Of a DNA stretch of 64,000 nucleotides, positions 11,921-64,000 are shown one piece after another (the first letter of the stretch is position 1; each line of letters starts with the position of its first letter). The translations under genes and the position numbers were made by a program. Source of the DNA: Eledone cirrhosa. Its lineage: Eukaryota. Under the pieces are notes generated by a model that was not told the DNA's origin, did no database searches, and saw nothing but the letters and a program-made list of their open reading frames with translations. Location of the stretch: NCBI GenBank assembly GCA_964016885.1, contig OZ024740.1:412548001-412612000 (forward strand). The letters are read 5' to 3'.

Positions 11921-11933
11921 GCTATTAGCTATT

Positions 11934-12821
<888 letters not shown>

Positions 12822-17936: not shown

Positions 17937-19045
17937 ATAATAACTAGAAATTGATTAACATATAAATATACCGTGTAACCACGCATGGCTAGTTGGGTAA
18001 TAAATAAATATATACCTTTAAGTATGATTAACCTTCCTTGTATATATCCCATTAAAGAAATATATTTCACCAATTAATCACATGGTAAGTCACGGAAAGT
18101 GGATATTATTGGATTGTCAACAAGGAAGAATAATTTTCAGCGATCCATGCTCACACAGCGAGTTCAAATCCTCATCTGGCCGCTACCGCGTGTTGTGTCT
18201 ACACATCACAGCAGCTTCGTTTCAGTGGCGTGAATAGGTATTCGACAACTAGAAATAGCAGTCAAATTCCCTTCAACAGAAATAGCTCTACAATTAAGGA
18301 GCCGTATTTATATATCTATATCCAAAATTAAGGTAAATTAAATGAATTTAATCCAAATCGAAATTGTGGGTGTCATGCCATAACGGCGTGCGCCATATCG
18401 CCTGGAAATAAGCTCAAAGATATGTCCGAGCATTTTATAATAACTAGAAATTGTTTAACATATAAATATACATGAATAATCACAGGAGATAATATTTACA
18501 AGCGTGTAACCACGCATGGCTAGTTGGGTAATAAATAAATATATACCTTTAAGTATGATTAACCTTCCTTGAAGGGAATTTGACTGCTATTTCTAGTTGT
18601 CGAATACCTCTTCACGCCACTGAAACGAAGCTGATGTGATGTGTAGACACAACACGTGGTAGCGGCCAGATGATGATTTGAACTCGCTGTGTGAGCATGG
18701 ATCGCTGGACATTATTCTTCCTTGATGACAATCCAATAATATCCACTTTCCGTGACTTACCAGCTGATTAATTGGTGAAATATATTTCTTTAATGGGATA
18801 TATACAAGGAAGGTTAATCATACTTAAAGGTATATATTTATTTATTACCCAACTAGCCATGCGTGGTTACACGCTTGTAAAAATTATCTCCTGTGATTAT
18901 TCATGTATATTTATATGTTAATCAATTTCTAGTTATTATAGAATGCTCGGACATATCTTTGAGCTTATTTCCAGGCGATATGGCATGGCAACCACAATTT
19001 CGATTTGGATTAAATTCATTTAATTTATCTTAATTTTGGATATAT
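17937..19045. repeat. Complex local duplication-inversion
   Basis: Segment order is A-B (17937-18275), link, C-A' (18316-18571), then inverted C-A-B (18569-19045). Confidence 0.85.
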
Positions 19046-20254: not shown

Positions 20255-20302
<48 letters not shown>

Positions 20303-20308
<6 letters not shown>

Positions 20309-21281
20309 AAAAAGAGATGAAATCGAAAATGCAACTGGAGTCTTATTTTTTTTTTTAAATATATATATTTATTTGGTTCCCTTACCGGTTTCGCAGTTCT
20401 TTTGCTTTTCAAAAGGTGAGTTGAGATGGAGGGTCTGTGGTTTTTCTCACATCTGGTTGGTCTCTGAATGTTACTTGTTTTATATGGAAAAAGTGACTCG
20501 AAATGCCAGGTTTTTCGAGAAGTAATTTGATTGGTTTGTCAATAATTATAATAAATTTCGGGCCAGGTCGCGTTACAATAGTTCTTCAAATATGAGGGGG
20601 GTTGTCACAGGTTGTTTTTTTCATATATGAGTGTTTGAATTTCTTTTTACTTGAAAAAAGGGGCTCACGAAGGCTTTTTTTTGGTTGGTTATAAATGAAA
20701 TTATAGCTGTCACGTGAACAAGTTTTCATTAAATTTTCGTGCCCTTATTTGGAAATCCATTCTGTAGCCTTTTTAGAGTATTTTATGATAAGTGAAAGAT
20801 AATGGTCAAGAGAAAGGGATGGGAGAATTGTTCTGGTTCAGTGAATATGGTTAGTTCGCTGGGGTGTCAGAATTCAGATTTTCTATTGAATAAAGAAAGA
20901 AAAGATATGTATGTTATTTGTGTGCTTATGTGTGTGTGCGTGTGTGTGTTGTGTGTGTGTGTGTCTGAATTTCTTTACTTTAAAAAAGGTGGCTCACGAA
21001 GGCTTTTTTTAATAAACGTGATTTGATTGGTTATAAATGAAATTTGGCTGTCACGTGAACAAGTTTTCATCACATTTTCGCGCCCTTGTTTGGAAATCTA
21101 TTATGTAGCCTTTATAGAGAATGTTATGACAAGGGAAAGATAGTGGTCATGAGAAATGGGATTGGGAGAATTGTTCTGGTGCAGTGAATATGGTTAGTTC
21201 GCTGAGGTGTCAGAGTTCAGATTTTCTATTGAAGTAAAGATATGTATGTTTATTTGTGATTGTGTGTGTGTGTGTGTGTGC

Positions 21282-21352
<71 letters not shown>

Positions 21353-22165
21353 GGAAGATGATTCTATTAGTAGAAATGGGGGAGGGAGTTGTGTGTGTGT
21401 GTATATGGGTGTTATGTGTGTGTGTGCGAGTATGTTAAGATGGAGAGAATATATATATATATATATTGTGTGTGTGTGTGTGTGTAGGAAAATGATTCCT
21501 TTAGTAGGAATATTTTTGAATGAACATATTTTCCTTACTTATTCGTATTTGTTCTGTTGTATTTTCAGTGCAAACGTATGTTAAGGTTTATTTAGTTTGG
21601 GTTTTTATTTTCTAAAGTAGAAGGTGTTATGTGTGTGTGTGTATGTCATATTATGGTGTTGACATAATGTATATTAAACCATATTTAATGCTGGTCTATA
21701 TTTTTGAATAAACATATTTTCCTTATTTATTCGTATTTGTTCTGTTGTATTGTTAGCGCAAAGGTAAAATGGGAAGAATTTGGGTGTCTTATTACTTGCG
21801 CAAATGTCTAGATATGCACTTAGTGGTATCTGTCTCGTGGTTGGATCTCGTAATTGTTGACGATGAACTGTCATTCTGTTTCTGAGTGTGAGTTTAGTTT
21901 GTCCTATATAATCTTCATTTCATCCTTTACATTTAATGGCATAAATTAGATTTTTTGATGAGCAAGTGAAGTGATTTTTTACAGTAAAATTTTATCCTGA
22001 TTTAAATGTATACGTGGATGTATAAGGAACCAAATAAATATATATATATTTTTTTTTAAATAAGACTGCAGTTGCATTTTCGATTTCATCTCTTTTTCTT
22101 TATACTTTCTCTCGTGTAGGACACCTCGGTTATTTTTCAATTCGTAAAAAAAACCTCACTTTCTA
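20303..22165 (-). mobile_element. Penelope-like retroelement 3 (Neptune-like) 3' fragment with inverted pLTR piece at its 5' end (22024-22165, plus)
   Basis: Minus 21674-22018 reads HFTCSSKNLIYAIKCKG*NEDYIGQTKLTLRNRMTVHRQQ...FIQKYRPALN. The 3' UTR has a 330-bp tandem duplication (20636/20966). HHR at 20379-20416. 20303-20383 is inverted at 22023-22104. Confidence 0.85.
20379..20416 (-). ncRNA. Type I hammerhead, U3-A8 core variant
   Basis: Reverse complement reads cctt-TTGAAAA-gca aaagaac tgc-GAAA-c cg g-TA-aggg. Confidence 0.72.
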
Positions 22166-30189: not shown

Positions 30190-30254
<65 letters not shown>

Positions 30255-30258
<4 letters not shown>

Positions 30259-30724
30259 TATGTATACGTACATACATATATGTATACAGACGTACAGTAG
30301 TATGTATATATATATATACATACATGCACACACATATATATGTACGTGTGGATTCACCGAACATCTATTATAATGCTCGGTGTGTTTGTAAACAAACATC
30401 CCGTATTAAGCCGTAGTGTCTAGCAACCATCGTTGCTCGTTTGTTCAACACTGACAAAGGAACGCTGTACTAGTTTCAAGCTTATTAGCTATCGTCAGCA
30501 ACGTATACCTTCCTGCCAGATGATTGAACGTGTGAAAGTATATACTTTCCTTATGCATATTAACGGCTGAGCAGCCTAATTTGCACATCGAATGGGTTAA
30601 TCGGCCGGCTACACCGAAAACGATAAACAGAAAAAATGAAACGAAATTTCATTTCCCACTCTTAGTACGGCTGTTACTTAAATATAAGTATGTATACATA
30701 CATATATATATATGTATACAGACG
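30255..30724 (-). mobile_element. Retrozyme-like non-coding HHR element, about 1.1 units with terminal redundancy
   Basis: About 430-bp unit. 30255-30292 is repeated at 30685-30724. HHR at 30462-30504. Homologous to 33802-34230 and 47631-49178. Confidence 0.8.
30462..30504 (-). ncRNA. Type I hammerhead ribozyme of the retrozyme-like unit, intact (GUA)
   Basis: Reverse complement reads acgttg-CTGACGA-t agct aata agct t-GAAA-c ta g-TA-cagcgt. Confidence 0.88.
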
Positions 30725-31662: not shown

Positions 31663-31863
31663 ATTATTTATATATATATATATATATAGTGGGAGAACAC
31701 TGGAAGGTAATATCGGTAGTGGTAGAGCACTCAGTCCATGGGACGAGTTTGGTAGATTACGAACTGAGGATCCGCTAAGGTGAAACATTTGTTGTATAAC
31801 TACTTCTATATATATGGGGCACTCCGCCTTTCGTATCTAATACTCTTCACAAGGTTTAGAAGG

Positions 31864-32255
31864 TCCCTAAAGGGAAAATGCCTGATAAACAACATTGGCT
31901 ACGCATGTGATGTTACAACTCGAACCTCCTCCAAAACATATATAGGGTCTACATCGACCCCCTTTAAGACTAGATACAACTCCAATCGCTATACATATAG
32001 GCAAGATAGACTTAAGAATACTACATCCCTAGCTTGTTACATATCCCTCCTGAAGAACACTGATATTCAATACACGCTTGATTGGAGAATCATCACTAAA
32101 TCATCGCAGTACATACCTCCTAGCAAGACCTGTGACCTTTGTCTCTCTGAATCAATGCCATAATACACTCCAAACTGAACCTGCTAAATAGGAAGTCGGA
32201 TATTTTCTCTTCTTGCCCGCACATAAATTTTAGCTCCTTCTAGTACTTTAGACTA
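31864..32255 (+). pseudogene. Decayed PLE GIY-YIG domain (element 4, same type as element 1)
   Basis: SLKGKCLINNIGYAC...TYIGSTSTPFKTRYNS...TSLA..I..LK...Y.LDWRII...CDLCLSE, then frameshifted LLNRKSDIFSSCPH. A degenerate HHR core CTGAGGA..GAAAC..GTT lies just upstream at 31764-31793. Confidence 0.8.
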
Positions 32256-33801
32256 ATTAGCTAACGCTGTAGGAACTGCATACCTCCATCCTATCTGGCC
32301 TAGGTAAAACAACGCCGCACTGCATACTGGTTCCTTTGTGACGATAACTGCCCTTCCTGTGTATATAGACTACTCTAATATGTCTTCTCTTCTCCCCTCT
32401 CTTACTCTTCTTCCTCTCTTCCCTTGCTCATCTTATTGGACCACAAGCCAAGAACCCTTGGGGTAGAACCTTAAGGCTTTTCACTATACCTAGCACAGTT
32501 TGACCCTATACAGCCACCTACCCACACTAACCATATTAATATGGTTTATAAACACACCCATTGTGCGCTAACTGATAGCACAGCATAATAGTGTGTCGGA
32601 ATCCCCCGAAACCCCGCCGCAGCTATAAAGCGGGTGAATTGGGCACCCGGGGTCCAGTTAACTTAACCCTAAAGTGTGTGATAGATCTATCATAGTATAG
32701 TGAACTATGGTAGAAAATCATGTGCGCTAGGTGCCGTAGAATCGATCAATCCCCTAGGGGAAGGGGTAGTTGATCGCCGAGGGCTTCGAATCAAACAAAA
32801 GACTCGCACCTAGCATCCCGTTAGATATCTAATGAATCCGCCCTTTATAACGCGAATTACCTCTCATATTTTTCATAGGCACACTACGACTTCCTGTGTT
32901 TATATTCGGACTACCGTTGTGTGTTACGAGCGAGAGACTAACCTTTGAAAGTTGGAATTAGTTGATATGAATTGTGATCCAGCTTTGATGAATTATAGGA
33001 CCACACTCAAGACAAAGTGCAACACTGGATATTGAAATCCGGCCGCCCCAGGAAGGGTCACACCCGACTGTGAATGGATTGCAACCTCCGGAGTCAATAA
33101 TCTAAACAAAGACCACGTGGAGGACATATAAATAACATAGCTGTCATTGACATGTTTGGCCGTGAGTTCTCTCTTATATACATAAATTTGCACTCACTCT
33201 AATAAATTATTATAACAATATCTGCTCACTCTGCCATATGTGATTCTGGAAGCGGAGTTTCTTTACCTCATCGTACTTTCTTTTAATTTTTATTTTAAGA
33301 TTTTAGGTGTATATCCCAGACCGCCTATGGTGATAAATCCACTGGGTATAGGTTTTGGAATAATAGTGTTATCACACTTAACGTTCGGAACTGGAAAATA
33401 TCGATGTGGTTCCTAGGGTGCTGATATGATAAGGCAAATGGACCTGTTACAATTGGAGTACACCATCCCTGATATGGACTATCGTACATGTAAGGTGTAC
33501 CACTGCTAACCAACTATTCTTCTCACAGACTCATGCTTACAAACTCTCTTAATCTGCCCGTAAACTCTGTTTTTGCACTGCTTGTGCTTTGATGTATCTA
33601 TGCTTTGCTTTTGTTTATATTTTGGGGGCTTTCGGGCTTTTTGTTCCTTTATTGTATTGTATTTTTATATTTATCTCTTTTGTTATCCCTGTATTTTTGT
33701 ACTTTGTTATTATTTTTTTAATTGTTTCTGATCATGCTGAGTAATACCTTCTTATCCCTTGCTACCCTCTCCCAACCTCTTTATCATCTATTGCACAATT
33801 T

Positions 33802-34230
33802 TAGTACAGCGTTCCTTTGTCAGTGTTGAACAAACAAGCAACGGTGGTTTCTAGACACTACGGCTTAATACGGGATGTTTGTTTACAAACACACCGAGCA
33901 TTATAATAAATGTTCGGTGAATCCAAACGTACATATATATATATCTGTGCATGTATGTATATATATATACATACTACTGTACGTCTGTATACATATATGT
34001 ATGTATGTATACATACTTATATTTAAGTAACAGCCGTACTAACAGTGGGAAATGAAATTTCGTTTCATTTTTTCTGTTTATCGTTTTCGGTGTAGCCGGC
34101 CGATTAACCCACTCGATGTGCAAATTAGGCTGCTCAGCCGTTAATATGCATAAGGAAAATATATACTTTCAGACGTTCAATCATCTGGCAGGAGGGTATA
34201 CGTTGCTGACGATAGCTAATAAGCTAGAAA
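33802..34230 (+). mobile_element. Retrozyme-like unit-length monomer, circularly permuted at the hammerhead
   Basis: Begins tagTA|cagcgttcc (cleavage site after 33806) and ends cgttg-CTGACGA-tagctaataagct-a-GAAA at 34230. Near-identical to the reverse complement of 30255-30724. Confidence 0.85.
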
Positions 34231-34370
34231 AATCACGGACACTCCCTCTCAACTCTACTTTTGAAAAGCAGAAGAACTGCGAAACCGGTAAAGGAACCAA
34301 ATAAATATATATTTTTTAAAAATAAGACTCCAGTTGCATTTTCGATTTCATCTTTTTTTCTCTCTCTATA
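34226..34370 (+). mobile_element. PLE 3 family pseudo-LTR 3' fragment
   Basis: Homologous to the reverse complement of 20303-20447. Ends in (TA)n. Confidence 0.82.
34258..34293 (+). ncRNA. Type I hammerhead, U3-A8 variant, fully paired, predicted cleavage after 34290
   Basis: ctt-TTGAAAA-gcag aagaa ctgc-GAAA-c cg g-TA-aag. Confidence 0.8.
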
Positions 34371-34377
34371 TATATAT

Positions 34378-34437
<60 letters not shown>

Positions 34438-34440
34438 AAA

Positions 34441-34797
34441 TAACGAAACGAAATTAAATTTCGTTTCGTTTGTAACTCACTTTTGTATGACTGACGCTTA
34501 AACAATTAAGTTAAAAATGTACATCCACATATGTATACTGAAATACTAGTATGCATATGAATACACACACGTGTACATATGTAGATGTACCTAGTTTTTC
34601 ACTGGACACTTTACTGTGAGTGTCCAGCTATTCTGTATGTAAACACACAGACAAACCGGTTTTTAGAGTCATACTGGTTTTCGAGGAAACACTATTCTCT
34701 AGAAAACTCGGTACATCTACATATGTACACGTGTGTGTATTCATATGCATACTAGTATTTCAGTATACATATGTGGATGTACATTTTTAACTTAATT
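34441..34797 (-). mobile_element. Diverged relative of the retrozyme-like unit with a terminal fold-back
   Basis: 34441-34700 is colinear with the unit (ctcactttt..gtatg; gtatac; hairpin; tgtaaaca.ac.ga..; catac.ggt). Inverted arms 34504-34600 and 34702-34797. Confidence 0.6.
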
Positions 34798-39171: not shown

Positions 39172-42100
39172 CTACAGGCTGTTGTAGAGAGAAGGCCCAT
39201 TCACACGGGCCATTCTCGCCACTTTCACCCACCTTTCATAAAACTGGTTGGGGTGGAGCACCTCTCTCTTCATCCTGATCCTTCTTCCGAAATGATATCG
39301 GAAGAAAAGGACCAGTTGTTGGCCGGAGAGAAAGGTGTCCGACCTTAGTCCTTTCAAACGCGTCCACCATACAACCTCTTTCACCATGGCTATTACACAG
39401 AGGAAGACCGCCTCTACTTCGTTTTGAAGGGAGGAGGCGGGTTGATCGTAACAATGGACTCGGTGGTCATCCGGATTGGTCCCACCCGTGACAGCAGTTG
39501 TTCCACATAGCGCCACAGGTCGGCAACACCCGGGCAGTGTACCAATGCGTGCGCGAGGTTTTCCTCGTCGCGCACACATCTCGGACAGATCTTCTTCGAA
39601 GGGTCCCTACCCGGGCGCCCGTGTCTGTAGTGCTTCTCTCGAACGGGCAGAGCCCCATGGTAGCACTGCCAGGCCAGGGACCTCTGGAAGTTGTCCATCG
39701 GTCCCAGGCCAAATGTCCTACCGAACAGGCTGGCCAGTTCTTCCTCCTCCATGCCTAGGGCTTCTAGAGAGCGTCGTCGCACCTGCTGCTGACCAACCCT
39801 CTATAGAATGTCGAGGTGGAGTCTCCACTGATACCTGGCTCTGCCTGCCAAAAAGCCGTGAGTGACCGAGCACACCCCGTGTGCCATGCGCCTAGTTTTC
39901 TCGGTCTTTGCTTGACCCAGGATTGCAGCTCGGGAAGCGAGACGAGTCTCGAAAAGGCTCGCCTCAAAAAACGGGGCCCACACCGGTTGACCGGTAAGGA
40001 ATATCTGGAGGTGCCGTAGCCTTAATGCGTGTTTACGCATCTGCAGCCACGGCATCCCCAGCCCTCCTTTAGAAGGGTGTTGACAGCAGACTATCTCCTC
40101 ACCAAAGAAACCCGCTTCTTCCAAAGGAATTGGAAGAGTGCGCGCTCAATTTTGGTGAGCGTTTCTCTTGGGCCAGGCACGACAGTCAAGTGGTAATAGA
40201 TGACGGACGCTATATAAGCGTTCGCCACCTCCGCCCGACGTTTCAGGGATAGTTTGTACTCTGCCCACTTCTGGGCCAGTGCAAACACCCTGTTCGTTAC
40301 TCACTCCAGTTCTTCTCAACCTGGAGGTCTGGTCCGAACCAAACCCCAAGCAGCTCCACCGGGCCCTCCATCCAGCGTCCGACGACGCCGTTGGAGGGCA
40401 TTGGTTTGCCCCTCCACGCGCCGCGTTGCAAACCCACGGACTTTTACCGGTTCAGCTTCGCCCCTGTAAACCATTCGTATTCCTCCAGTAAGGTGCAGAT
40501 CGCTCCGATTTCCTAGGTACTGGACACCATTACTGTTACGTCATCGGCGTAGGCCGACACCTCTTTCTGCAATCCCGGTTCCAAGGGGATGCCCTGCAAC
40601 AACTCCAGCTTCCGCAGCAGTGGCTCGAGAGCCAGCACATACAGAAGGGAGGAGAGAGGGCATCTCTCTCGGATGGACCGCGCGATTTGGAACGGCTCCG
40701 TGGTAGCCGTTCACCTTGACCCTCGAGCAGATCCGGCTGCTGTGAATGGCAGTAATCCAGCTCCTGAAAACGGGGCCGAAACCTGTCGCCGCTAGAACCG
40801 CATTCAGGTAACCATGTCGACCCTATCAAACGCTTTAGATTAATCCAAGTTGATCAGGTCCCCACCAAAGCCGGGTTCATTCCCTACCCTCTCTATGATG
40901 TATCGCATGAGGTGGAGGTTGTCGTGAATGGACCTGGACGGGATAGCGTATGTCTGCGCATCTCCCACCAGGTTGCCCACGACAAGCACCAACCTCTTTG
41001 CTAACACCTTGTACAAAATCTTTAACTCCGTATTTAGCAGAGTTATGGGCCTGAAATTACATATTTCACCCCCCTTATTCTCGTCCTTCCTCACTAGCGA
41101 GACTACGCCCTTTGTCACAGAACAGGGAATTTTCCCGTTCTGTTGCCAGTTTCAGTAGACCGCCTCGAGGAGATTGGAGAAAAAGTCCGGCATCGCTACA
41201 TAAATTTCGTATGGAAGACCATCGAGACTCGGGGATTTGCGTTTGCCGTATTGGCTCAGCACGTCCCCTATTTCAGCAGCTGAAATCGGCCCTTCGCAGG
41301 ACTTCGCCCCCTCGTTCGAAAGACGCGGCAGGCCGTCGAGGTATGGACCGAAATCCACATCCCCATCCAATCTCCCGCCCCTGCCGAACAATCGTGCAAA
41401 TTGCCTTTGAAAGGCCTCACGCATCTGTCCAGGTTCAAGGATCACCCGTTCATAGTGGTCCTTCAAAGACCGGATAGTGGATTTAATCCCACTTTTGGCT
41501 TCTGTCACGCGGGCCCAGCTAACAACTTTGGCCCACTAGTTTCCTAGAGAACGTATTTTGCATCTGACAACGCAAGCTTCGTGCTTCGCGTCCAAAAACT
41601 GCTCTAAGGCCGTTCTCGACGCTAGCACTCTTGCTACGTTGCCGTTTCTAATCGCCTCTTCCACTCCATCTACCAATTCCCTTTCTTTCCTATTCCTATC
41701 TGAAGCTAATTGCTTACTAAAACTTATCGAGACTACTCTAATCTCTCTCTTGAGATATCCCCACCACCTGCTGTTGACAATAGCCCCCGTCAACCGTTCC
41801 TTAACTAAAGGGCTAATCCGATCCCTGTAAGCTTTACTTGCCGGTAAGGACAACTTCAGCTTCCAATAACCGGGTCCCTGTCTATGCGTTCTTTCAAGGT
41901 TGACTATGCAGGTCACTAATGTGTGATCTAAATAGCCAACCATGCGCATCTCTGGACAACTTAATAGGTCCCTATCCTTATTTCTAACTAGGACCCTATC
42001 TAGATACGACCTAGATGATCCGCTGCGGTTAGTCCAAGTCCAGGTCGGCGCAGTCGGAAAAGCTAGCCGATATCTATCGGCCAGGTTAAATCGGCCAATT

Positions 42101-42606
42101 AACCGTTTGAGGCTGTTACAGACCCCTCTATCGCGACATGCTACTACATAGTCCCAACTTTCATCTAGGATACCATTCCAGTCCCCCACTAAAAAGTCTC
42201 CCACTAAAGGTCCCCCACTAAAAGTCTCCATACGTTGGAAGAAGTCCGGCCTCGCTGCCCCAAAAGGGGCATAGGCGGCGACCAGCCTAAAGGCTCCACC
42301 TTCACCATTGCCAACGACTAGTACCACCAGTCGACCCTCCGGGTCCAAGTGCACCGTCAGCGTTGCGAGGCCCAGGTGTTTTTGCAGCAGAACGACAACC
42401 CCACCGCCACCTCCTGGCTGACAGAGAGATGCATAGATCTCAAATTCGTTAAAGGTGGGGGCTAGCTGGCGTTCGCTGCTGACCCTGGACTCGCAAATAG
42501 CCATGATATTTATACTGCGCGACCTGAGGTCATTTAGAAGTTTTGCCTGCTTCCAATGTGAGCTCAGGCCACGCGCATTCAAACATCCTACTCTCAATAC
42601 AGCCAT
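39172..42606 (-). pseudogene. LINE ORF2 (APE endonuclease, RT, C-terminal zinc motif), multiple frameshifts and stops
   Basis: VGCLNARGL, GDWN, SYLDRVL, YLDH, KSPSLDGLPYE, FRPITLLNTELKI, VSAYADDVT (about 40535-40560), HPSKGGLGMP, CPRC..E...HALVHC. Confidence 0.92.
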
Positions 42607-42609
42607 GTT

Positions 42610-44540
42610 GGCGGCGAACGGGAAGAAAAAGAAAAGGCACCTGCCACCTTACGTCCCGGGGATCGGGCTGCACAACTTCCATGGGGGTGAGTGAGGGGTT
42701 GTTGGGTGGAGTGGTGGTTTGTGGTGGTGTGGGGATATCAGAGTGTGGTCGGGTTGGGGTGTTTGGTGTGGTGTGGGTGTCTGGGTTTGGGTGAGGACAT
42801 TTTTCAAGAGGACGCGGTTCATTGGTTTTACCCATAGCTCGTCCTCAGGAAAATTGTCTTTTAGTTCTATATAAATGTCTATCGGAGTTTTAATCATTTT
42901 TAAAGAGGGTTTCTTTGTATCCCTCGCGAAATTTGGCCCTTCGGTTTGCACCGTAGGGTTTTGTTAAATTTTGTTTACAAGTTTTATATTTTTTGTGTTG
43001 AAGTATGTGTTTAGCTGTGTCTGTGTAATTTTTGTTGGTTTTTGTTCTGTATTTTTTGTGTTTTGTTTTGGGGAGGGGTTATTTTTCTTTGTGTGGGTGC
43101 GGTGTGTTTTCTTTTTTTTCGCTTTATTTTTCGGAAGGGTTCCCCCTCGTCTTCTGATGTTAAGGGATTCCCTTCCATGTTGGAAGGAAGGGGTATATTT
43201 TGGGGTCTTGTTATGTATGTTGTGGAGTTGTTTTAGGTGGGGAGGTGTTGGGTGGGACCGTGTTCAGTATTTTGTTGACTTGTTGTGTTTGTTGTTTTTG
43301 GGGTGGTGGTGGTGGTGATTGTGTTTTTGTTTGTGGAGTTGTTTTGGGTGTGGAGGGGTTGGGTGGGTCTGTGTTCAGTTTTTTGTTGACTTTGTTGTGT
43401 TTGTTGTTGTTATAGTGGTGGTGGTGGTGTTGTTTTTGGAGGTGTTGGCAGTAAAGTTGTTTTAGTTTGTTGAGCACAGGCAGCGCTCAGGTGACCTCTG
43501 CCACCACAGAGGTAGCAAGCGGGCCGCCTACCCTGAACTGCAATGTTCATAAATTGGGAGCCTTCCAGGGACACTCTTTGGGGTATCTTTGCGATACGTT
43601 CTGGTTTCATTCGAACCAGAACCTGTATGTCTATACCGCCAAAGTGGCTCCTGGTGGCTCTTCCTATATCAAGGAGTTCATCTTCGTCGTCCAGTATACC
43701 TCCTAGTATCCACCACATATTTGTATTTATATATATACCGGAGATTGTTATTTTTTGAATTTTCTTCCCCATGTAGATGGGGAAGAATGTGTACTGTTTG
43801 GATACAATTGGCGACACCGAGTAGTTTTGGGCCACCAATTTGTCCTTCATCAAAATTATCAGACTCCCATATAATTTCACTCTTACAATAAAAATCACGT
43901 CCTTCAACGCGTCCCTTAACACCAGCTTAATTTCGCTATGCAATAATTGAGCCGGTTTTTTCGACGCATTTGATATAGTTCAAAGTCCTTAGGACTGTGT
44001 CTCATTCAATATCCTTAGGGGAGATTATGGTGAATTCACCGTTTTCACCAAAGCTCACCTGTTTTCTCCCCTCTTTTAGCAATTCCGCTGCATTACTGAT
44101 GTCAACTGGGATTAAAGTTTCGGTCTCCTTAACGACTTGGGCAAAGGATATTCATGTAGTGTTGTCTTTTTTTGTTGTGTTTCGTTGCTGTTGTTCTTGC
44201 TTTCTTGGGTGTTTGCGTTTTGGGGGTTTTCACCCATTTTTTCGTGTTTTGAGTTCACATTTTTCATTGTTGCTGCTGTTTTCGCTTTTGTGTGTGTTTT
44301 TGTTATTTTCTTTGTTATTCGTGTTGGTGTTGTTGGTGTCAGTGTAATTTATACATTCTTTCAATTTACTGTTTCCATTGGTTGGGTTATTACCCAAGTT
44401 TTTACAATTGTTCGCCAAATCCGCTTCCATACGTGCATGTGAAAGCGAGAGAAGGGAAGCTTCAGTAGGTTGAGTTACTTCTTCCTCTTTATCACTTTCC
44501 CTGGGGGGCGTGGCAGTGGTGTTTTGATGTGTGGTGTCCA
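42610..44540 (-). pseudogene. LINE ORF1 (gag-like, zinc knuckle), disrupted
   Basis: GRRPACYLCGGRGHLSAAC in track ORF 43410-43943. Low-complexity K/T/P-rich flanking frames with an internal duplication of about 100 bp at 43220-43430. Confidence 0.8.
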
Positions 44541-44807
44541 TTATTGTAAGTTGGTATACACATTTTTCAAAGTAGTTTTTACTTCCCAAAAATGGGTAAA
44601 AATAAAATAACCACCCGTTTGCAAGTCCAGGCGAGAGGTTACGTCACACAAATAAAACAAATGAAACACAAACTCACAGTTAAAAACGTAATACAAATCC
44701 CAAAAGCCTGCAGCCGGAGTAACATACATCTACTATGAACGATAGATAGATAGATAGATAGATATACACTCGTGTAAGAATCTGTTGGTCGACGTTACTT
44801 ATTTATT

Positions 44808-45417: not shown

Positions 45418-47746
45418 GTAAGTTTATTTGCTAACATTCCGAATCCGCAAAGGACCTGAACAAGCCAGGTAAACTGAATTCTCTCCAAAATTTAAATGTC
45501 AACAAACATATTGTTAGATACATCGTAGATCTCGCTAAGCAGAATGGACCGGCAACACACATATACCTCAAACATTTCAACGCACAAAATGTTACTATTA
45601 GCTCTCTTTCCTAGAGAGGTTTGTTTAATTTATTTTTCTCTTTTTTATCTGCATACACACATATACGCATAAATATACACACACATACACACACACTCAT
45701 ATCGCAGTACAGAACCTAAAAAACGTGTTATCCCTGCATATTTATTTCTATTCAAGGTTTCTTCTTGTAGTCTCTGTGGTCATTACGCTGTAAAGTATAC
45801 CACATTACATACGGTGTTGTATCATATATCATATATATTACATTATATTATATTATTATATTATGTTATGTTATTTCATATTATATTATGTTAGCATGTT
45901 ATATTACATGTTATGTAAATATGTTTGTATCTAATAACAAAGATATATCCAAAATCCAATTATCTCTAAAATATTTTCTTTCTCGGAACTTCCTTAGAAT
46001 TCAGAATCCATAATCTCATCTACCAAATAATAGGGACAAGTTCACTCATATATAATTTGATTCAACGTAATTGTTAATATACCACCAATCCTTAATTTAA
46101 CATTAACACACCGTTGTAGAATTGGCTAGTATAACAGAAAGTTAATCCGCTATAATGGACATACAACACCTTTTCTACTAGACTCTGCATGGTATCTAAA
46201 ACCATATATATGAAATTGTTCTCACCAAAGAAAAGTTGTTTTTGTTTTGTGTGTGTGTAGAATCCAAATTGACTGAAACTATATTAAGATATGTAGCTCA
46301 ATTTGTGTAATACAGTGGGTAACATTGTCCCAGAAATAAGCAATACGAAATATCAAAATGAATGCAACTGAACACGCGGAAAAATATTTTAATCGCCTAC
46401 TCCATTGAGATCTAATTTCCTCACAAGGACAGGAACTTGCACAAGGGTGTAAGTTGGAACCCCGTTTTAAATATCTATCTTTCCTGAGTATTAGGTAATG
46501 ATTCACATTGTAAAGTTTCTGTATGTACAGAATTCCAGAATTCCAAATAGTACGTGCACACATAAATATGTGTGCGTGTGAGCGTATGTTTTTGTGTGTA
46601 TGTCTGTGTGTCTGCGACTATGTTAGTAAATTATATCTGATTTTTCATTCAATATTATATTTGTTCTGACAAATACTAAACGCATACTAACGTAACTGAT
46701 TATTATATGTATAATATTAGTATGGTTATATCGATAAAACACAAAGCTTCATCATTGTAAACTCTAAGTTATCCGGGATAGGGATTGTCGCTAGCACAAT
46801 TCCTATAATTCTATAATCTGAGAAAATCTGCCCTCTACCAGATAATAAAACACACGGACCCACTAACATTGGCCATGTGGTTGATCTTATGCCTGTGTAC
46901 TAGGTGCATATGAAAAGAAAAATACTTTCAAAACTAAACATATAAGCAGATAAATTTGTGAAAGCACTTAAATGAATATTCGATCTTTCCGTATAATTCT
47001 GATATGTTCTTATATTTATATATACCTACTACTTGTCATATTTACAAGCGAATGCTTTTAGAGATCCTGACGAATATTCAAGAATAATCTATTAAAATAA
47101 TAATTAGATTATAGCAGTGTGTACAGAATGAGGTAAAAATAAAATTGCTGACTAATTTACCTTTTAGCTGCAGAAAAATAACAATTGTTAACAAGTAAAA
47201 GTGATAACTTCAAGAAATTCTAAATGATATCTTAACATAATTTGCTTCCTTATGCTAAAGATCTTTCTTGTTTTCTTTGAAAACAAGGGGCAGCTAAATT
47301 CATGTTACTCTCTATTAAGCAACACGTTAAAAATAAATAATCCAGCCTCGCAGTTAAAATCTGTTTGCAAATATAGAAAAAAATATTTCCGGGTATTTTT
47401 GCAGTATAATTAGTATAATTAAACATAAACTATGAAAAGGGAAACAACTCAAATATGCCAACAGCATGAATTTATGTAGTTTATTTAAAAACTGATACAT
47501 AGAATACGGCATGGAAAGAGTTTTCAATGAATTGAAATTATATTCAATTATTCATGCAATATTTAACTTAAGGAGAATGCTACTTGAATGTAGTATATAT
47601 TTATATTTAAGTATATATTTATATAATTATTAAGTTGAAAAAAAATGAAAACGAAATTTCATTTCTCACTCTTAGTATGGCACTTACTTAAATGTAAGTA
47701 TGTATGTATACGTACATACATATATGTATACAGACGTACAGTAGCA

Positions 47747-47792
<46 letters not shown>

Positions 47793-47958
47793 CATACATA
47801 TAAACATACAGGTACACATACATATATGCACGCATCAGTTTAGCGGACGCTTATTATAACGCCGCTTTGTTCGTGTGTAAACAAACTGAAAAGCCTGAAT
47901 TTATGCCATACGGTGTTAAGGCAACCACGTCACCTTTTTGTTCAACACTGACACAGGA

Positions 47959-48000
47959 ACGATGTACTAGTTTCAAGCTTGTTAGTATCATCAGCACCGT
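47959..48000 (-). ncRNA. Type I hammerhead, array unit 1, with a 1-nt deletion in stem II
   Basis: Reverse complement reads acggtg-CTGATGA-tactaacaagctt-GAAA-c ta g-TA-catcgt. Confidence 0.75.
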
Positions 48001-48235
48001 TTACCCATCTGCCAGATAGTTGAACGTTCGAAAGTATATACTTTCCTTATGAAAATTAACGGCTGAGCAGCCTAAGTTGCATATTGAGTGAGTTAAATCG
48101 GTCAGGCATACCGAAAACGATAAGTTGAAAAAAATGAAAACGAAATTTCATTTCTCACTCTTAGTATGGCACTTACTTAAATGTAAGTATGTATGTATAC
48201 GTACATACATATATGTATACAGACGTACAGTAGCA

Positions 48236-48333
<98 letters not shown>

Positions 48334-48499
48334 CATACATATATACATACAGGTACACATACATATATGCACGCATCAGTTTAGCGGACGCTTATTATAA
48401 CGCCGCTTTGTTCGTTTGTAAACAAACTGAACAGCCTGAATTTATGCCATACGGTGTTAAGGCAACCACGTCACCTTTTTGTTCAACACTGACACGGGA

Positions 48500-48542
48500 A
48501 CGATGTACTAGTTTCAAGCTTGTTAGCTATCATCAGCACCGT
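48500..48542 (-). ncRNA. Type I hammerhead, array unit 2, intact (GUA)
   Basis: Reverse complement reads acggtg-CTGATGA-t agct aaca agct t-GAAA-c ta g-TA-catcgt. Confidence 0.88.
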
Positions 48543-48780
48543 TTACCCATCTGCCAGATAGTTGAACGTTCGAAAGTATATACTTTCCTTATGAAAATTA
48601 ACGGCTGAGCAGCCTAATTTGCATATTGAGTGAGTTAAATCGGTCAGGCATAGCGAAAACGATAAGCTGAAAAAAATGAAAACGAAATTTCATTTCTCAC
48701 TCTTAGTATGGCACTTACTTAAATGTAAGTATGTATGTATACGTACATACATATATGTATACAGACGTACAGTAGCATGC

Positions 48781-48829
<49 letters not shown>

Positions 48830-49058
48830 CATACATATATACATACAGGTACACATACATATATGCACGCATCAGTTTAGCGGACGCCTATTATAACACC
48901 GCTTTGTTCGTTTGTAAACAAACTGAACAGCCTGAATTTATGCCATACGGTGTTAAGGTAATCAGTTTGTTTACAAACGAACAAAGCGGCGTTATAATAA
49001 GCGTCCGCTAAACTGACGCGTGCATATATGTATGTGTACCTGTATGTATATATGTATG

Positions 49059-49126
<68 letters not shown>

Positions 49127-51103: not shown

Positions 51104-54100
51104 TGTGTGTATGGAGTTATGTGTATGTGTGTAGAAAGTGTAGTGTGTATGGAGTTATGTGTATGTGTGTAGAAGGTGTAGTGTGTATGGAGTTATGTAT
51201 ATGTTTGTAGAAAGTGTAGTGTGTATGGAGTTATGTATATGTGTGTAGAAAGTGTAGTGTGTATGGAGTTATGTATATGTGTGTAGAAAGTGTAGTGTGT
51301 ATGGAGTTATGTATATGTGTGTAGAAAGTGTAGTGTGTATGGAGTTATGTATATGTGTGTAGAAAGTGTAGTGTGTATGGAGTTATGTATATGTGTGTAG
51401 AAGATGTAGTGTGTATGGAGTTATGTATATGTGTGTAGAAAGTGTAGTGTGTATGGAGTTATGTATATGTGTGTAGAAGTTGTAGTGTGTATGGAGTTAT
51501 GTATATGTGTGTAGAAGATGTAGTGTGTATGGAGTTATGTATATGTGTGTAGGTGTAGTGTGTATGGAGTTATGTATATGTGTGTAGGTGTAGTGTGTAT
51601 GGAGTTATGTATATGTGTGTAGAAAGTGTAGTGTGTATGGAGTTATGTATATGTGTGTAGATGTTGTAGTGTCTATGGAGTTATGTATATGTGTGTAGAA
51701 GATGTAGTGTGTATGGAGTTATGTATATGTGTGTAGGTGTAGTGTGTATGGAGTTATGTATATGTGTGTAGAAGGTGTAGTGTGTATGGAGTTATGTATA
51801 TGTGTGTAGAAAGTGTAGTGTATGTGGAGTTATGTATATGTGTGTAGGTGTAGTGTGTATGGAGTTATGTGTATGTGTGTAGAAGGTGTAGTGTGTATGG
51901 AGTTATGTATATGTTTGTAGAAAGTGTAGTGTGTATGGAGTTATGTATATGTGTGTAGAAAGTGTAGTGTGTATGGAGTTATGTATATGTGTGTAGACAT
52001 TGTAGTGTGTATGGAGTTATGTATATGTGTGTAGAAAGTGTAGTGTGTATGGAGTTATGTATATGTGTGTAGAAAGTGTAGTGTGTATGGAGTTATGTAT
52101 ATGTGTGTAGAAGGTGTAGCGTGTATGGAGTTATGTATATGTGTGTAGAAGGTGTAGTGTGTATGGGGTTATGTGTATGTGTGTAGAAAGTGAATTGTGT
52201 ATGGAGTTATGTATATGTGTGTAGAAAGTGTAGTGCGTATGGAGTTATGTATATGTTTGTATGTGTAGTGTGTATGGAGTTATGTATATGTGTGTATGTG
52301 TAGTGTGTATGGAGTTATGTATATGTTTGTAGAAAGTGTAGTGTGTATGGAGTTATGTATATGTGTGTAGAAAGTGTAGTGTGTATGGAGTTATGTATAT
52401 GTGTGTAGAAGGTGTAATGTGTATGGAGTTATGTATATGTGTGCAGAAGGTGTAGTGTGTATGGAGTTTTGTATATGTGTGTATGTGTAGTGTGTATGGA
52501 GTTATGTAAATGTGTGTAGAAAGTGTAGTGTGTATGGAGTTATGTATATGTGTGTAGAAGGTGTAGTGTGTATGGAATTATGTATATGTGTGTAGAAGGT
52601 GTAGTGTGTATGGAGTTATGTATATGTGTGTAGAAGATGTAGTGTGTATGGAGTTATGCATATGTGTGTAGAAGGTGTAGTGTCTATGGAGTTATGTATA
52701 TGTGTGTAGGTTTAGTGTGTATGGAATTATGTATATGTGTGTAGGTGTAGTGTGTATGGAGTTATGTGTATGTGTGTAGAAGGTGTAGTGTGTATGGAGT
52801 TATGTATATGTGTGTAGAATGTGTAAATTGTATGGGGTTAAGTGTATGTGTGTAGAAGGTGTAGTTTGTATGGAGTTATGTATAAGTGTGTAGAAGGTGT
52901 AATGTGTATGGAGTTATGTATATGTGTGTTGGTGTAGTGTGTATGGAGTTATGTATATGTGTATAGAAAGTGTAGTGTGTATGGAGTTATGTATATGTGT
53001 CTAGAAGGTGTAGTGTGTATGGAGTTATGTATATGTGTGTAGAAAGTGTAATGTGTATGGAGTTATGTGTATGTGTGCAGAAGGTGTAGTGTGTATGGAG
53101 TTATGTATATGTGTATAGAAAGTGTAGTGTGTATGGAGTTATGTATATGTGTCTAGAAGGTGTAGTGTGTATGGAGTTATGTATATGTGTGTAGAAAGTG
53201 TAATGTGTATGGAGTTATGTGTATGTGTGCAGAAGGTGTAGTGTGTATGGAGTTATGTATATGTGTGTAGAAGGTGTAGTGTGTATGGAGTTATGTATAT
53301 GTGTGTAGAAAGTGTAGTGTGTATGGAGTTATGTATATGTGTGTAGGAGTAGTGTGTATGGAGTTATGTATATGTGTGTAGAAAGTGTAGTGTGTATGGA
53401 GTAATGTATATGTGTGTAGAAACTGTAGTGTGTATGGAGTTATGTATATGTGTGTAGAAGGTGTAGTGTGTATGGAGTTATGTATATGTGTGTAGAAAGT
53501 GTAGTGTGTATGGAGTTATGTATATGTGTGTAGGAGTAGTGTGTATGGAGTTATGTATATGTGTGTAGAAACTGTAGTGTGTATGGAGTTATGTGTATGT
53601 GTGTAGAAGGTGTAGTGTGTATGGCGTTATGAATATGCGTGTAGGTGTAGTGTGTATGGAGCTATGTACATGTGTGTAGAAGGTGTAGTGTGTATGGAGT
53701 TATGTATATGTGTGTAGAAAGTGTAGTGTGTATGGAGTTATGTATATGTGTGTAGAAGATGTAGTGTGTATGGAGATATGTATATGTGTGTAGAAAGTGT
53801 AGTGTGCATGGAGCTATGTATATGTGTGTAGAAGATGTAGTGTGTATGAAGTTATGTATATGTGTGTAGGTGTAGTGTGTATGGAGTTATGTATATATGT
53901 GTATGTGTAGTGTGTATGGAGTTATGTATATGTGTGTAGATAGTGTAGTGTGTATGAAGTTATGTATATGTGTGTAGAAAGTGTAGTGTGTATGGAGTTA
54001 TGTATATGTGTGTAGAAAGTGTAGTGTGTATGGAGTATTGTATATGTGTGTAGAAAGTGTAGTGTGTATGGAGTTATGTATATGTGTGTAGAAAGTCTAG

Positions 54101-57100
54101 TGTGTATGGAGTTATGTGTATGTGTGTAGAAGGTGTAGTGTGTATGGAGTTATGTATATGTGTGTAGGTGTAGTGTGTATGGAGTAATGTATATGTGTGT
54201 AGAAAGTGTAGTGTGTATGGTGTTATGTGTATGTGTGTAGAAGCTGTAGTGTGTATGGAGGTATGTATATGTGTGTAGGTGTAGTGTGTATGGAGTTATG
54301 TATATGTGTGTAGAAAGTGTAGTGTGTATGGAGTTATGTATATGTGTGTAGAAAGTGTAGTGTGTATGGAATTATGTATATGTGTGTAGAAGGTGTAGTG
54401 TGTATGGAATTATGTATATGTGTGTAGAAGGTGTAGTGTGTATGGAGTTATGTATATGTGTGTAGGTGTAGTGTGTATGGAGTTATGTATATGTGTATGG
54501 TGTTATGTATATGTGTGTAGAAAGTGTAGTGTGTATGGAATTATGTATATGTGTGTAGAAGGTGTAGTGTGTATGGAGTTATGTATATGTGTGTAGAAGG
54601 TGTAGTTTGTATGGAGTTATGTATATGTGTGTAGAAAGTGTAGTGTGTATGGAGTTATGTATATGTGTGTAGAAAGTGTAGTGTGTATGGAGTTATGTGT
54701 ATGTGTGTAGAAGGTGTGGTGTGTATGGAGTTATGTATATGTGTGTAGAAAGTGTAGTGTGTATGGAGTTATGTATATGTGTGTAGAAGTTGTAGTGTGT
54801 ATGGAGTTATGTATATGTGTGTAGAAAGTGTAGTGTGTATGGAGTTATGTATATGTGTGTAGAAAGTGTAGTGTGTATGGAATTATGTATATGTGTGTAG
54901 AAGGTGTAGTGTGTATGGAGTTATGTATATGTGTGTAGAAAGTGTAGTGTGTATGGAGTTATGTATATGTGTGTAGAAGGTGTAGTGTGTATGGAGTTAT
55001 GTATATGTGTGTAGAAGATGTAGTGTGTATGGAGTTATGTATATGTGTGTAGAAGGTGTAGTGTCTATGGAGTTATGTATATGTGTGTAGGTTTAGTGTG
55101 TATGGAATTATGTATATGTGTGTAGGTGTAGTGTGTATGGAGTTATGTGTATGTGTGTAGAAGGTGTAGTGTGTATGGAGTTATGTATATGTGTGTAGAA
55201 TATGTAAATTGTATGGGGTTATGTGTATGTGTGTAGAAGGTGTAGTTTGTATGGAGTTATGTATAAGTGTGTAGAAGGTGTAATGTGTATGGAGTTATGT
55301 ATATGTGTGTTGGTGTAGTGTGTATGGAGTTATGTATATGTGTATAGAAAGTGTAGTGTGTATGGAGTTATGTATATGTGTGTAGAAGGTGTAGTGTGTA
55401 TGGAGTTATGTATATGTGTATAGAAAGTGTAGTGTGTATGGAGTTATGTATATGTGTGTAGAAGGTGTAGTGTGTATGGAGTTACGTATATGTGTGTAGA
55501 AGGTGTAGTGTGTATGGAGTTATGTATATGTGTGTAGAAAGTGTAGTGTGTATGGAGTTATGTATATGTGTGTAGGAGTAGTGTGTATGGAGTTATGAAT
55601 ATGTGTGCAGAAAGTGTAGTGTGTATGGAGTTATGTGTATGTGTGTAGAAAGTCTAGTGTGTATGGAGTTATGTGTATGTGTGTAGAAGGTGTAGTGTGT
55701 ATGGAGTTATGTATATGTGTGTAGAAAGTGTAGTGTGTATGGAGTTATGTATATGTGTGTAGAAAGTCTAGTGTGTATGGAGTTATGTGTATGTGTGTAG
55801 AAGGTGTAGTGTGTATGGAGTTATGTATATGTGTGTAGAAAGTGTAGTGTGTATGGTGTTATGTATATGTGTGTAGAAGTTGTAGTGTGTATGGAGTAAT
55901 GTATATGTATGTAGAAAGTGTAGTATGTATGGAGTTATGTGTATGTGTGTAGAAGGTGTAGTGTGTATGGAGTTATGTATATGTGTGTAGGTGTAGTGTG
56001 TATGGAGTTATGTATATGTGTGTAGAACGTGTAGTGTGTATGGAGTTATGTATATGTGTGAAGAAGGTGTAGTGTGTATGGAGTTATGTGTATGTGTGTA
56101 GAAGTTGTAGTGTGTATGGAGTTATGTATATGTGTGTAGAAAGTATAGTGTGTATGGAGTTATGTATATGTGTGTAGAAAGTGTAGTGTGTATGGAGTAT
56201 TGTATATGTGTGTAGAAAGTGTAGTGTGTATGGAGTTATATATATGTGTGTAGGAGTAGTGTGTATGGAGTTATGTATATGTGTGTAGAAAGTGTAGTGT
56301 GTATGGAGTTATGTATATGTGTGTAGAAAGTCTAGTGTGTATGGAGTTATGTGTATGTGTGTAGAAGGTGTAGTGTGTATGGAGTTATGTATATGTGTGT
56401 AGGTGTAGTGTGTATGGAGTAATGTATATGTGTGTAGAAAGTGTAGTGTGTATGGAGTTATGTGTATGTGTGTAGAAGCTGTAGTGTGTATGGATGTATG
56501 TATATGTGTGTAGGTGTAGTGTGTATGGAGTTTTGTATATGTGTGTAGAAAGTGTAGTGTGTATGGAGTTATGTATATGTGTGTAGAAAGTGTAGTGTGT
56601 ATGGAATTATGTATATGTGTGTAGAAGGTGTAGTGTGTATGGAGTTATGTATATGTGTGTAGAAGGTGTAGTGTGTATGGAGTTATGTATATGTGTGTAG
56701 GTGTAGTGTGTATGGAGTTATGTATATGTGTGTAGAAAGTGTAGTGTGTATGGAGTTATGTATATGTGTGTAGAAAGTGTAGTGTGTATGGAATTATGTA
56801 TATGTGTGAAGAAGGTGTAGTGTGTATGGAGTTATGTATAAGTGTGTAGAAGGTGTAGTTTGTATGGAGTTATGTATATGTGTGTAGAAAGTGTAGTGTA
56901 TATGGAGTTATGTATATGTGTGTAGAAAGTGTAGTGTGTATGGAGTTATGTGTATGTGTGTAGAAGGTGTGGTGTGTATGGAGTTATGTATATGTGTGTA
57001 GAAAGTGTAGTGTGTATGGAGTTATGTATATGTGTGTAGAAAGTGTAGTGTGTATGGAGTTATGTATATGTGTGTAGAAGATATAGTGTGTATGGAGTTA

Positions 57101-63100: not shown

Positions 63101-64000
63101 TAGAATGTGTAAATTGTATGGGGTTATGTGTATGTGTGTAGAAGGTGTAGTTTGTATGGAGTTATGTATAAGTGTGTAGAAGGTGTAATGTGTATGGAGT
63201 TATGTATATGTGTGTTGGTGTAGTGTGTATGGAGTTATGTATATGTGTATAGAAAGTGTAGTGTGTATGGAGTTATGTATAAGTGTGTAGAAAGTGTAGT
63301 GTATATGGAGTTATGTATATGTGTGTAGAAAGTGTAGTGTGTATGGAGTTATGTGTATGTGTGTAGAAGGTGTGGTGTGTATGGAGTTATGTATATGTGT
63401 GTAGAAAGTGTAGTGTGTATGGAGTTATGTATATGTGTGTAGAAAGTGTAGTGTGTATGGAGTTATGTATATGTGTGTAGAAGATGTAGTGTGTATGGAG
63501 TTATGTATATGTGTGTAGAAGGTGTAGTGTCTATGGAGTTATGTATATGTGTATAGGTTTAGTGTGTATGGAATTATGTATATGTGTGTGGGTGTAGTGT
63601 GTATGGAGTTATGTGTATGTGTGTAGAAGGTGTAGTGTGTATGGAGTTATGTATATGTGTGTAGAAGGTGTAGTGTGTATGGAGTTATGTATATGTGTGT
63701 AGAAGGTGTAGTGTGTATGGTGTTATGTATATGTGTATAGAAAGTGTAGTGTGTATGGAGTTATGTATATGTGTGTAGAAGGTGTAGTGTGTATGGAGTT
63801 ATGTATATGTGTGTAGAAGGTGTAGTGTGTATGGAGTTATGTATATGAGTGTAGAAAGTGTAGTGTGTATGGTGTTATGTATATGTGTATAGAAAGTGTA
63901 GTGTGTATGGAGTTATGTATATGTGTGTAGAAGGTGTAGTGTGTATGGAGTTATGTATATGAGTGTAGAAAGTGTAGTGTGTATGGAGTTATGTGTATGT
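51104..64000. repeat. 38-bp minisatellite array with 35-bp variants, running off the window end
   Basis: Consensus AGAA(A/G)GTGTAGTGTGTATGGAGTTATGTATATGTGTGT. AGAAAG at 51247 and 51285 gives the period of 38. Roughly 340 units by length division. Confidence 0.97.

Follow-up and report, generated by a model that had tools for sequence, protein, structure and literature searches.

The insertions of a non-coding, ribozyme-bearing repeat (a retrozyme) in the genome of Eledone cirrhosa were found to end at fixed sites and to pair one long with one short arm. This combination is the inversion-plus-tail signature of Penelope-like elements (PLEs) and argues for Penelope-type mobilisation of the retrozyme. 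It is highly probable (about 0.85) that a Penelope-type enzyme copies the retrozyme, the template being multimeric or circular RNA left uncut by the ribozyme. The Penelope signature is borne by the insertion anatomy of the retrozyme itself, which bears on the question of which enzyme and which form of RNA are used to copy animal retrozymes.

The locus followed up lies in a 64,000-nt stretch of E. cirrhosa DNA (hereafter the window), and the host genome is 3.0 Gb in size and rich in microsatellites. Positions 33802–34230 match a repeat, the retrozyme, that is also present at 30249–30724 and 47640–49110 in the window, and 34226–34366 match an element, PLE-3, at 20.4 kb. At the focal locus, the retrozyme (33802–34225; 424 nt of a 430-bp unit) is fused in sense to a PLE-3 3′ end with no (TA)n between them. 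The first-pass annotation had described this sense join to a PLE-3 3′ fragment carrying its own hammerhead ribozyme (HHR)-like motif and (TA)n tail, and had noted that the PLE-3 copy at 20.4 kb reads gAGAAAAAccac at the junction point; both were confirmed. Adjacency to PLE-3 had also been put forward for a genome-wide test, and the retrozyme/PLE-3 junction is unique, with 1 match in a pattern search of the genome. The features of the locus, and the copies compared with it, are as follows.

20256–21400, minus strand: longer copy of the PLE-3 3′ UTR, the reference used in the first-pass annotation
30249–30724, minus strand: ordinary retrozyme arm that reads across the HHR and stops before (TA)n at the short site
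31865–33801, plus strand: UP, a Penelope-like element upstream, 3′-truncated here, with its own HHR and (TA)n tail missing (from repeat comparison)
33802–33806, plus strand: 5′ junction TAGTA, the retrozyme bases preceding the predicted cut
33802–34225, plus strand: retrozyme-templated stretch, 424 of 430 nt
33807–33812, plus strand: 3′ strand of helix I of the retrozyme HHR, after the predicted cut at 33806/33807 (from covariation in 153 HHR copies)
34200–34225, plus strand: 5′ part of the retrozyme HHR, with the 5′ strand of helix I, the CUGACGA core and helix II
34226–34230, plus strand: 3′ junction, with A from PLE-3 and GAAA common to the retrozyme core and PLE-3
34226–34366, plus strand: PLE-3 3′ fragment, extending from the hot spot of run-off as far as the short 3′ end
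34256–34294, plus strand: HHR-like motif of the PLE-3 fragment, with variant core UUGAAAA and a predicted cut after 34290
34367–34434, no strand: (TA)n target and tail
47640–49110, minus strand: second retrozyme subfamily, ~2.5 tandem units and an inverted arm

More long inverted-arm insertions were seen in the window at 67–2626, 10430–12724 and 17972–18873. The first two contain PLE-like reading frames, and in the insertion at 10430–12724 these are accompanied by an HHR-like motif and by a pair of 3′ ends ~55 nt apart. Another repeat family with a hammerhead-like CTGAGGA...GAAAC motif (31680–31800) recurs in several fetched loci. A satellite array with 38/114-bp repeats occupies 51105–64000 and is at least 12.9 kb long; it is preceded at 50773 by an apparent match to the UP family's long 3′ end. 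LINE fragments at 39414–44643 (minus strand) include AP-endonuclease-like and reverse transcriptase (RT)-like frames and an upstream zinc-knuckle-like ORF, all named by motif resemblance.

The retrozyme unit is 430 bp long in tandem neighbours, compared with which just one base, a C, is absent between 34230 and 33802. Two retrozyme motifs have 11,072 and 18,773 exact matches genome-wide. Head-to-tail arrays of at least 8 units of 420–430 bp were found (loci L044–L048, L051 and L057), and the long arrays at L044–L048 (contig C1, ~96.99–97.03 Mb; at least 8 units) include a 420-bp variant. The HHR is a canonical type I ribozyme in which six helix I positions are paired in 135–150 of 153 copies, one of these pairs being kept in 140 of the 153 by way of five types of pair. 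The strands of helix II read AGCT/AGCT, and helix III is a short palindrome. Searching the window with Rfam at the gathering score gave no matches, and free folding of five HHR stretches was uninformative (z −1.1 to +0.6). The predicted circular fold of one unit has an energy of −124.5 versus −95 ± 6 kcal/mol, with none of 40 shuffles as low. As far as can be predicted from its sequence, the repeat has the traits of a non-LTR retrozyme, namely a tandem non-coding unit, a type I HHR and a self-paired circular fold.

Five element ends were compared with the retrozyme, and convincing homology was found to none except that of the element at 34435–34797. The best similarity to PLE-3 was a 25-nt motif that is not significant, being matched by 14 of 500 shuffles in one of 10 tests. 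The 34435–34797 element is a different inverted-arm element that abuts the same (TA)n from the right, and its end has a 25-nt hairpin-like motif in common with the retrozyme long end (0 of 500 shuffles). It may represent a related non-autonomous family, in which no HHR was recognised by eye.

The ends of the retrozyme were examined in a census of 70 loci picked by a motif far from the ribozyme, in which 99 arms were called. In this and the other pattern searches the loci used were those listed first, mostly near the start of contig C1, and hence form a non-random sample of the genome. Arms of less than 45 nt were dropped, as were short matches confined to unit positions 95–245 without the conserved core; the unfiltered census was inflated by the TA-rich palindromic part of the unit. 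The 3′ ends fell at unit positions 263–284 in 51 arms, at 213–229 in 37 and elsewhere in 11, so that two fixed positions within the unit, each followed by (TA)n, account for 88 of the 99. No arm ended at the HHR, which was crossed by 65. The 5′ ends were spread over all ten bins of the unit, with 3 of 99 within ~10 nt of the cut (4.8 expected), and the enrichment of ends near the cut that had been put forward for testing was not seen at either end of these arms. Random distribution of ends across the unit had been named in advance as evidence against the first-pass interpretation; the 5′ ends are distributed in this way, whereas the 3′ ends are fixed, ~200 and ~150 nt from the ribozyme. Self-cleavage thus does not set the ends of retrozyme copies, and unit positions 224 and 280 represent two exact predicted RT start sites.

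Retrozyme insertions often consist of two head-to-head arms, each ending in (TA)n. Among 28 such pairs, 21 combined a long and a short end and 7 had one odd end, while long-long and short-short pairs were absent. All 21 pairs with two canonical ends are therefore of the long-short type (p ~3e-7 under random pairing).

Breaks close to the cut were also sought with sequence patterns. For 5′ breaks beside the cut there were 409 matches, with no peak among the first 100 listed (hand tally). In 24 fetched loci, 24 arms starting near the cut were identified; 20 of them have one of the usual ends and 4 have another, with none ending at the HHR. For 3′ breaks within the last 12 nt before the cut, 79 matches were obtained with a pattern that would miss the focal locus and ~60% of random joins. 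These were mostly internal deletions, and 20 of the 79 were examined in their loci; ~28 of the 79 are true ends (hand tally), of which 8 lie at the cut and 6 of these 8 run into (TA)n. A sense PLE-3 was joined to none of the 79, and the genome pattern search revealed no PLE-3 start joined at the retrozyme cleavage site.

The parent ORF of PLE-3 (L340; 510-aa frame) matched the Pfam domains RVT_1 (E = 3e-7) and GIY-YIG (E = 4e-5), both above the cut-off, which identifies PLE-3 by predicted protein as a true RT and GIY-YIG Penelope element. The GIY-YIG domain is C-terminal and a CxxxxCxxC Zn-finger-like linker is present. There are 12,884 exact PLE-3 motif matches genome-wide. The HHR-like motif of PLE-3 is conserved, with a variant core (UUGAAAA), a 4-bp helix II and a palindromic helix III; free folding gives no HHR. 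The UUGAAAA core corresponds to a U3-A8 swap, which is tolerated in hammerheads.

PLE-3 insertions are built in the same manner as those of the retrozyme: two sites 61 nt apart account for the ends of 34 of the 39 arms, and among 15 head-to-head pairs there are 12 that are long-short and none that is matched. The starts of 18 of the 39 arms fall inside a 14-nt segment that includes base 34226 and lies ~30 nt downstream of TATAAAA. We infer that this segment is either the 5′ end of the RNA or a stop for the RT. The usual partner at a PLE-3 start is the opposite arm or (TA)n, and at the focal locus it is the retrozyme. PLE-3 5′ ends at 20480–20445 (minus strand) and in loci L211–L240 likewise cluster ~30 nt past the TATAAAA box, which suggests that the PLE-3 3′ repeat contains a promoter and that short run-off copies (150–210 nt) are numerous. 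At L007 (1455–1560), the PLE-3 start is present as three 37-nt copies in tandem, all rejoined at the same AGAAAAA base, and at L094 (1191–2097) a 68-nt PLE-3 tail arm lies head to head with a UP element.

Two other possibilities for PLE-3 were discarded. The T in AAAAATCAC is not a marker for a PLE-3 subfamily with a different upstream sequence, as most of the 100 matches listed (of 106) retain GTG upstream; this pattern leaves out typical full-length PLE-3 copies by design, and hence yields no hot-spot frequency. Nor do the two arms of a PLE-3 insertion come from different RNAs, as a subfamily marker (TAC- or ACC-type) was concordant between arms in 31 rows (several loci counted twice).

At the 3′ junction of the focal locus, base 34226 is A, and the equivalent base is T in all of 160 other retrozyme HHRs from fetched loci and in 99 of 100 HHRs among the matches listed in a separate search. 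As A is absent from the 160, the crossover is placed at 34225/34226. The AGAAA that had been thought to be common to both parts is thus reduced to GAAA, preceded by one mismatched A from PLE-3, which supplies AGAAAAA. The copy continues past both usual retrozyme 3′ ends, at 34025 (unit position 224) and 34081 (unit position 280). There are four GAAA sites per unit, and a junction at the HHR is therefore a ~1-in-4 outcome under either a jump or nested insertion. A transfer at 34226 would be natural, since the PLE-3 part starts at the point where cDNAs of PLE-3 usually end.

At the 5′ junction, comparison of repeats confirmed that retrozyme sequence begins at 33802, with TAGTA before CAGCG and the predicted cut at 33806/33807. 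The clean start proposed there held for the retrozyme bases, T33802 and A33806 fitting the retrozyme and not UP, but not as a sharp boundary, since UP copies elsewhere align through 33805. AGT (33803–33805) is common to UP and the retrozyme and is preceded by one mismatch, and the two junctions are thus alike in having microhomology and one mismatch. On these alignments, the DNA upstream is another Penelope-like repeat that has AGT in common with the retrozyme. UP normally runs on for another ~290 or 400 nt until it reaches an HHR and (TA)n of its own, and this part is absent from the window. A GIY-YIG-like reading frame is found in UP near 31865–32160 and gave no match in a Pfam scan; an endonuclease is named here by resemblance of motifs.

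The length of the retrozyme part was also considered. The first-pass annotation had interpreted the copy as one monomer opened within the ribozyme; a near-unit length (424 of 430 nt templated) was borne out, and the idea that it is more than coincidence was not. With 5′ ends evenly spread and four GAAA sites per unit, a length of this kind is expected by chance in ~2% of cases. Arms of 415–431 nt made up 5 of 88 (~2 expected), and a barrier at one turn was rejected as an explanation of the unit length because arm lengths show no clear pile-up there. A one-turn length fits a circular template, on which copying would have halted 1 nt short of the paired GAAA, though the absence of a clear one-turn limit in other arms means that this too may be the 2% coincidence.

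There is an even chance that the focal locus records a single event, in which PLE-3 cDNA would have jumped onto uncut or circular retrozyme RNA. The PLE-3 protein would nick (TA)n and start at the PLE-3 short start site, and the RT would run to the 5′ stop zone of PLE-3 RNA. The cDNA end would then pair with GAAA in the retrozyme RNA, one mismatched base being retained, and 424 nt of retrozyme would be copied through the uncut ribozyme junction. Finally, the cDNA would join the upstream DNA via AGT, with the last ~290–400 nt of the older UP deleted.

Such a jump is supported by the start of PLE-3 within the stop zone used by 18 of 39 arms, by the absence of (TA)n between the parts and of either usual retrozyme end, and by the equal divergence of the retrozyme and PLE-3 parts (13/322 and 4/97; Fisher p = 1.0 in a test of little power). 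It is also supported by the two sense-to-sense rejoins at L007, in which the same AGAAAAA base is joined onto a GAAAA site, and by short retrozyme pieces at PLE-3 starts in two loci. In L332 (1500–1530), 13–18 nt of retrozyme lie between the two arms of a head-to-head PLE-3 insertion. In L333, a PLE-3 start carries a 15-nt retrozyme piece with no retrozyme within ~4.4 kb, which we estimate to be <1% likely by chance.

The case for a jump is weakened in several respects. No second long retrozyme-PLE-3 fusion was found in 6 other sense windows, and the donor in L332 could be DNA, as a retrozyme pair lies 350 bp from the PLE-3 insertion. An orientation test with the focal window left out favours neither side, as 2 matches in 6 sense windows, 0 real matches in 4 antisense windows and 0 in one UP control are too few; one pattern match (L334) belongs to neither family and is a chance match that reflects the background of the pattern. 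Also against a jump, direct joins of 5′ ends to foreign DNA made up 18 of 108 non-microsatellite retrozyme flanks and 14 of 89 PLE-3 flanks, focal locus included, and 3 of the 4 orientable foreign partners other than the focal locus were antisense, which points to joining at the DNA level. In addition, UP has undergone a deletion at this same locus and is as old (17/361) as the other two parts, the age test having little power, and PLE end pieces were not found at retrozyme 5′ junctions in the flanks examined.

Nested insertions with loss of DNA, at somewhat less than an even chance, cannot be separated from a template jump at this locus. A retrozyme arm with a TAGTA start and a normal (TA)n end would have inserted first, and PLE-3 later in its (TA)n. 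Either the PLE-3 5′ end was joined at GAAA or a later microhomology deletion occurred, with ~230–290 nt removed. Both families are abundant (18,773 and 12,884 exact motif matches), have (TA)n as a common target and are often side by side (L018, L039, L049, L052, L055, L144 and L247). Arms starting at TAGTA are common (~12 of the 100 matches listed of 409; hand tally), and those starting near the cut ended normally in 20 of 24 cases. Foreign joins are often antisense, one example being L161, where a retrozyme arm is joined to an antisense PLE-3 end, and DNA was lost from UP at the focal locus in that way. A rough estimate gives of the order of one such HHR junction per genome, and one was seen. 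Against this, two separate deletions of ~250–400 nt are required, and the junctions predicted near retrozyme tails were not represented by a long fusion in two near-tail windows. The retrozyme piece in L333, which has no nearby donor, and the equal divergence of the retrozyme and PLE-3 parts also argue against nesting.

It is very improbable that a self-cleaved linear monomer was the template for an end-to-end jump by a PLE-3 RT, as the first-pass annotation had proposed, with ribozyme-bounded monomers as the record. Both ends of the retrozyme part do lie within 6 nt of the cut, and a small class of arms may end there (8 of ~28 true ends among 79 matches; hand tally), though 6 of those 8 run into (TA)n, where G followed by TA mimics GTA. 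However, a self-cleaved monomer would start with CAGCG and end with CTAGTA, whereas TAGTA is at the 5′ end here and its T33802 and A33806 do not come from UP. The copy reads through an intact GTA/CAG, which argues that the template was not a self-cleaved linear monomer. The 65 arms that cross the HHR point the same way, and as none of the 99 ends there and 5′ ends are scattered (3 of 99 near the cut), ribozyme-bounded monomers do not form a class; nor does PLE-3 start after the cleavage site anywhere in the genome pattern search.

An assembly error or ectopic recombination of three repeats is the least credible explanation, as each of the three parts has its own 4–5% of private changes and both junctions have microhomology with one mismatch, and although the listed contigs of four sequencing runs bridged neither junction and showed no empty site, these contigs are short and break in repeats, so that missing bridges prove nothing.

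PLE-3 is a candidate for the driver of the retrozyme and is not proven as such. Other PLE-like families in the window also end in (TA)n, and UP is a two-ended family with (TA)n tails, so the signature does not single out PLE-3. The proposal that a PLE mobilises the retrozyme therefore stands for Penelope-type machinery, on the family-wide end signature, and not for PLE-3 as the proven driver. A combined scheme is doubtful, in which the RT-endonuclease of a PLE would prime both (TA)n strands from two built-in sites, one per strand, on circular or multimeric retrozyme RNA and would jump in trans off the 5′ end of its own RNA to retrozyme RNA, the focal locus being one full turn, 1 nt short of the starting hybrid of the RT, and PLE-3 the driver. 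If true, it would make PLE-3 the autonomous element that drives a retrozyme whose copies number in the tens of thousands.

The single fusion is a suggestive physical link, and is too little to carry the claim alone. Template-switch chimeras of U6 and the LINE L1 reportedly have a similar form, with a copy of a small RNA joined in the sense orientation to the 5′ side of the 3′ end of a retroelement. The focal locus would differ from these in having a Penelope RT as driver, a ribozyme repeat as partner and internal entry, rather than the entry at the RNA 3′ end that is said to occur in U6-L1.

Animal retrozymes are known, and the main text of Cervera and de la Pena 2020 (PMC7229834) proposes PLEs as strong candidates for their mobilisation. 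The metazoan non-LTR retrozymes described there are similar to the E. cirrhosa repeat in their tandem non-coding unit, type I HHR, strong circular fold (predicted here) and co-existing PLEs, but the invertebrate units are ~170–400 nt versus 430 bp here. According to the accessible text of PMC4209133, the metazoan HHR architecture is one that is cleaved in dimers and from whose cleavage monomeric circles are protected; the HHR found here is similar, with a 6-bp helix I, a 4-bp helix II and a short palindromic helix III. A 2026 preprint (Li, Clavereau, Pollet, bioRxiv 10.64898/2026.07.22.740005) treats retrozymes as non-autonomous PLE derivatives, its main text drawing on co-occurrence and on pLTR homology in 24 of 57 Xenopus families. 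The preprint and the present analysis both have PLE machinery mobilising retrozymes, the evidence being co-occurrence and homology in the former and insertion anatomy here. The words 'inverted', 'tail' and 'microsatellite' do not occur in the main text of PMC7229834, where the fixed ends, paired arms and PLE fusions seen here are not described. Inverted arms, tails or fusions of retrozymes are likewise not in the main text of the preprint, and none were apparent from titles and the starts of abstracts in the literature (mostly non-subscription). Anatomical evidence for Penelope-driven retrozyme mobilisation is therefore useful and possibly unreported.

Among PLEs, an inverted 5′-truncated copy and a one-sided tail are given in the accessible text of PMC8557442 as traits that LINE insertions do not show. 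With purified Poseidon_Ac, both strands of the target are extended, beginning at two internal start sites by which the tail is defined, and HHR cleavage is not needed (PMC11167929). As far as the accessible text of these two sources extends, PLE-3 resembles EN+ PLEs of the Neptune/Nematis type and Poseidon_Ac in its RT and C-terminal GIY-YIG domain, CxxxxCxxC linker, HHR-like motif in the 3′ repeat, (TA)n targets, inverted 5′-truncated partners and two internal 3′ ends that define a tail; the likeness to Neptune would rest on the Zn-finger-like linker. PLE-3 is thus a candidate protein for an in vitro assay of the Poseidon_Ac kind. The elements differ in the length of the tail, which is 56–61 nt here versus 30–40 nt, and in the strict rule of one long and one short end per pair, which is not stated in that text and is used here by a ribozyme repeat that lacks an ORF.
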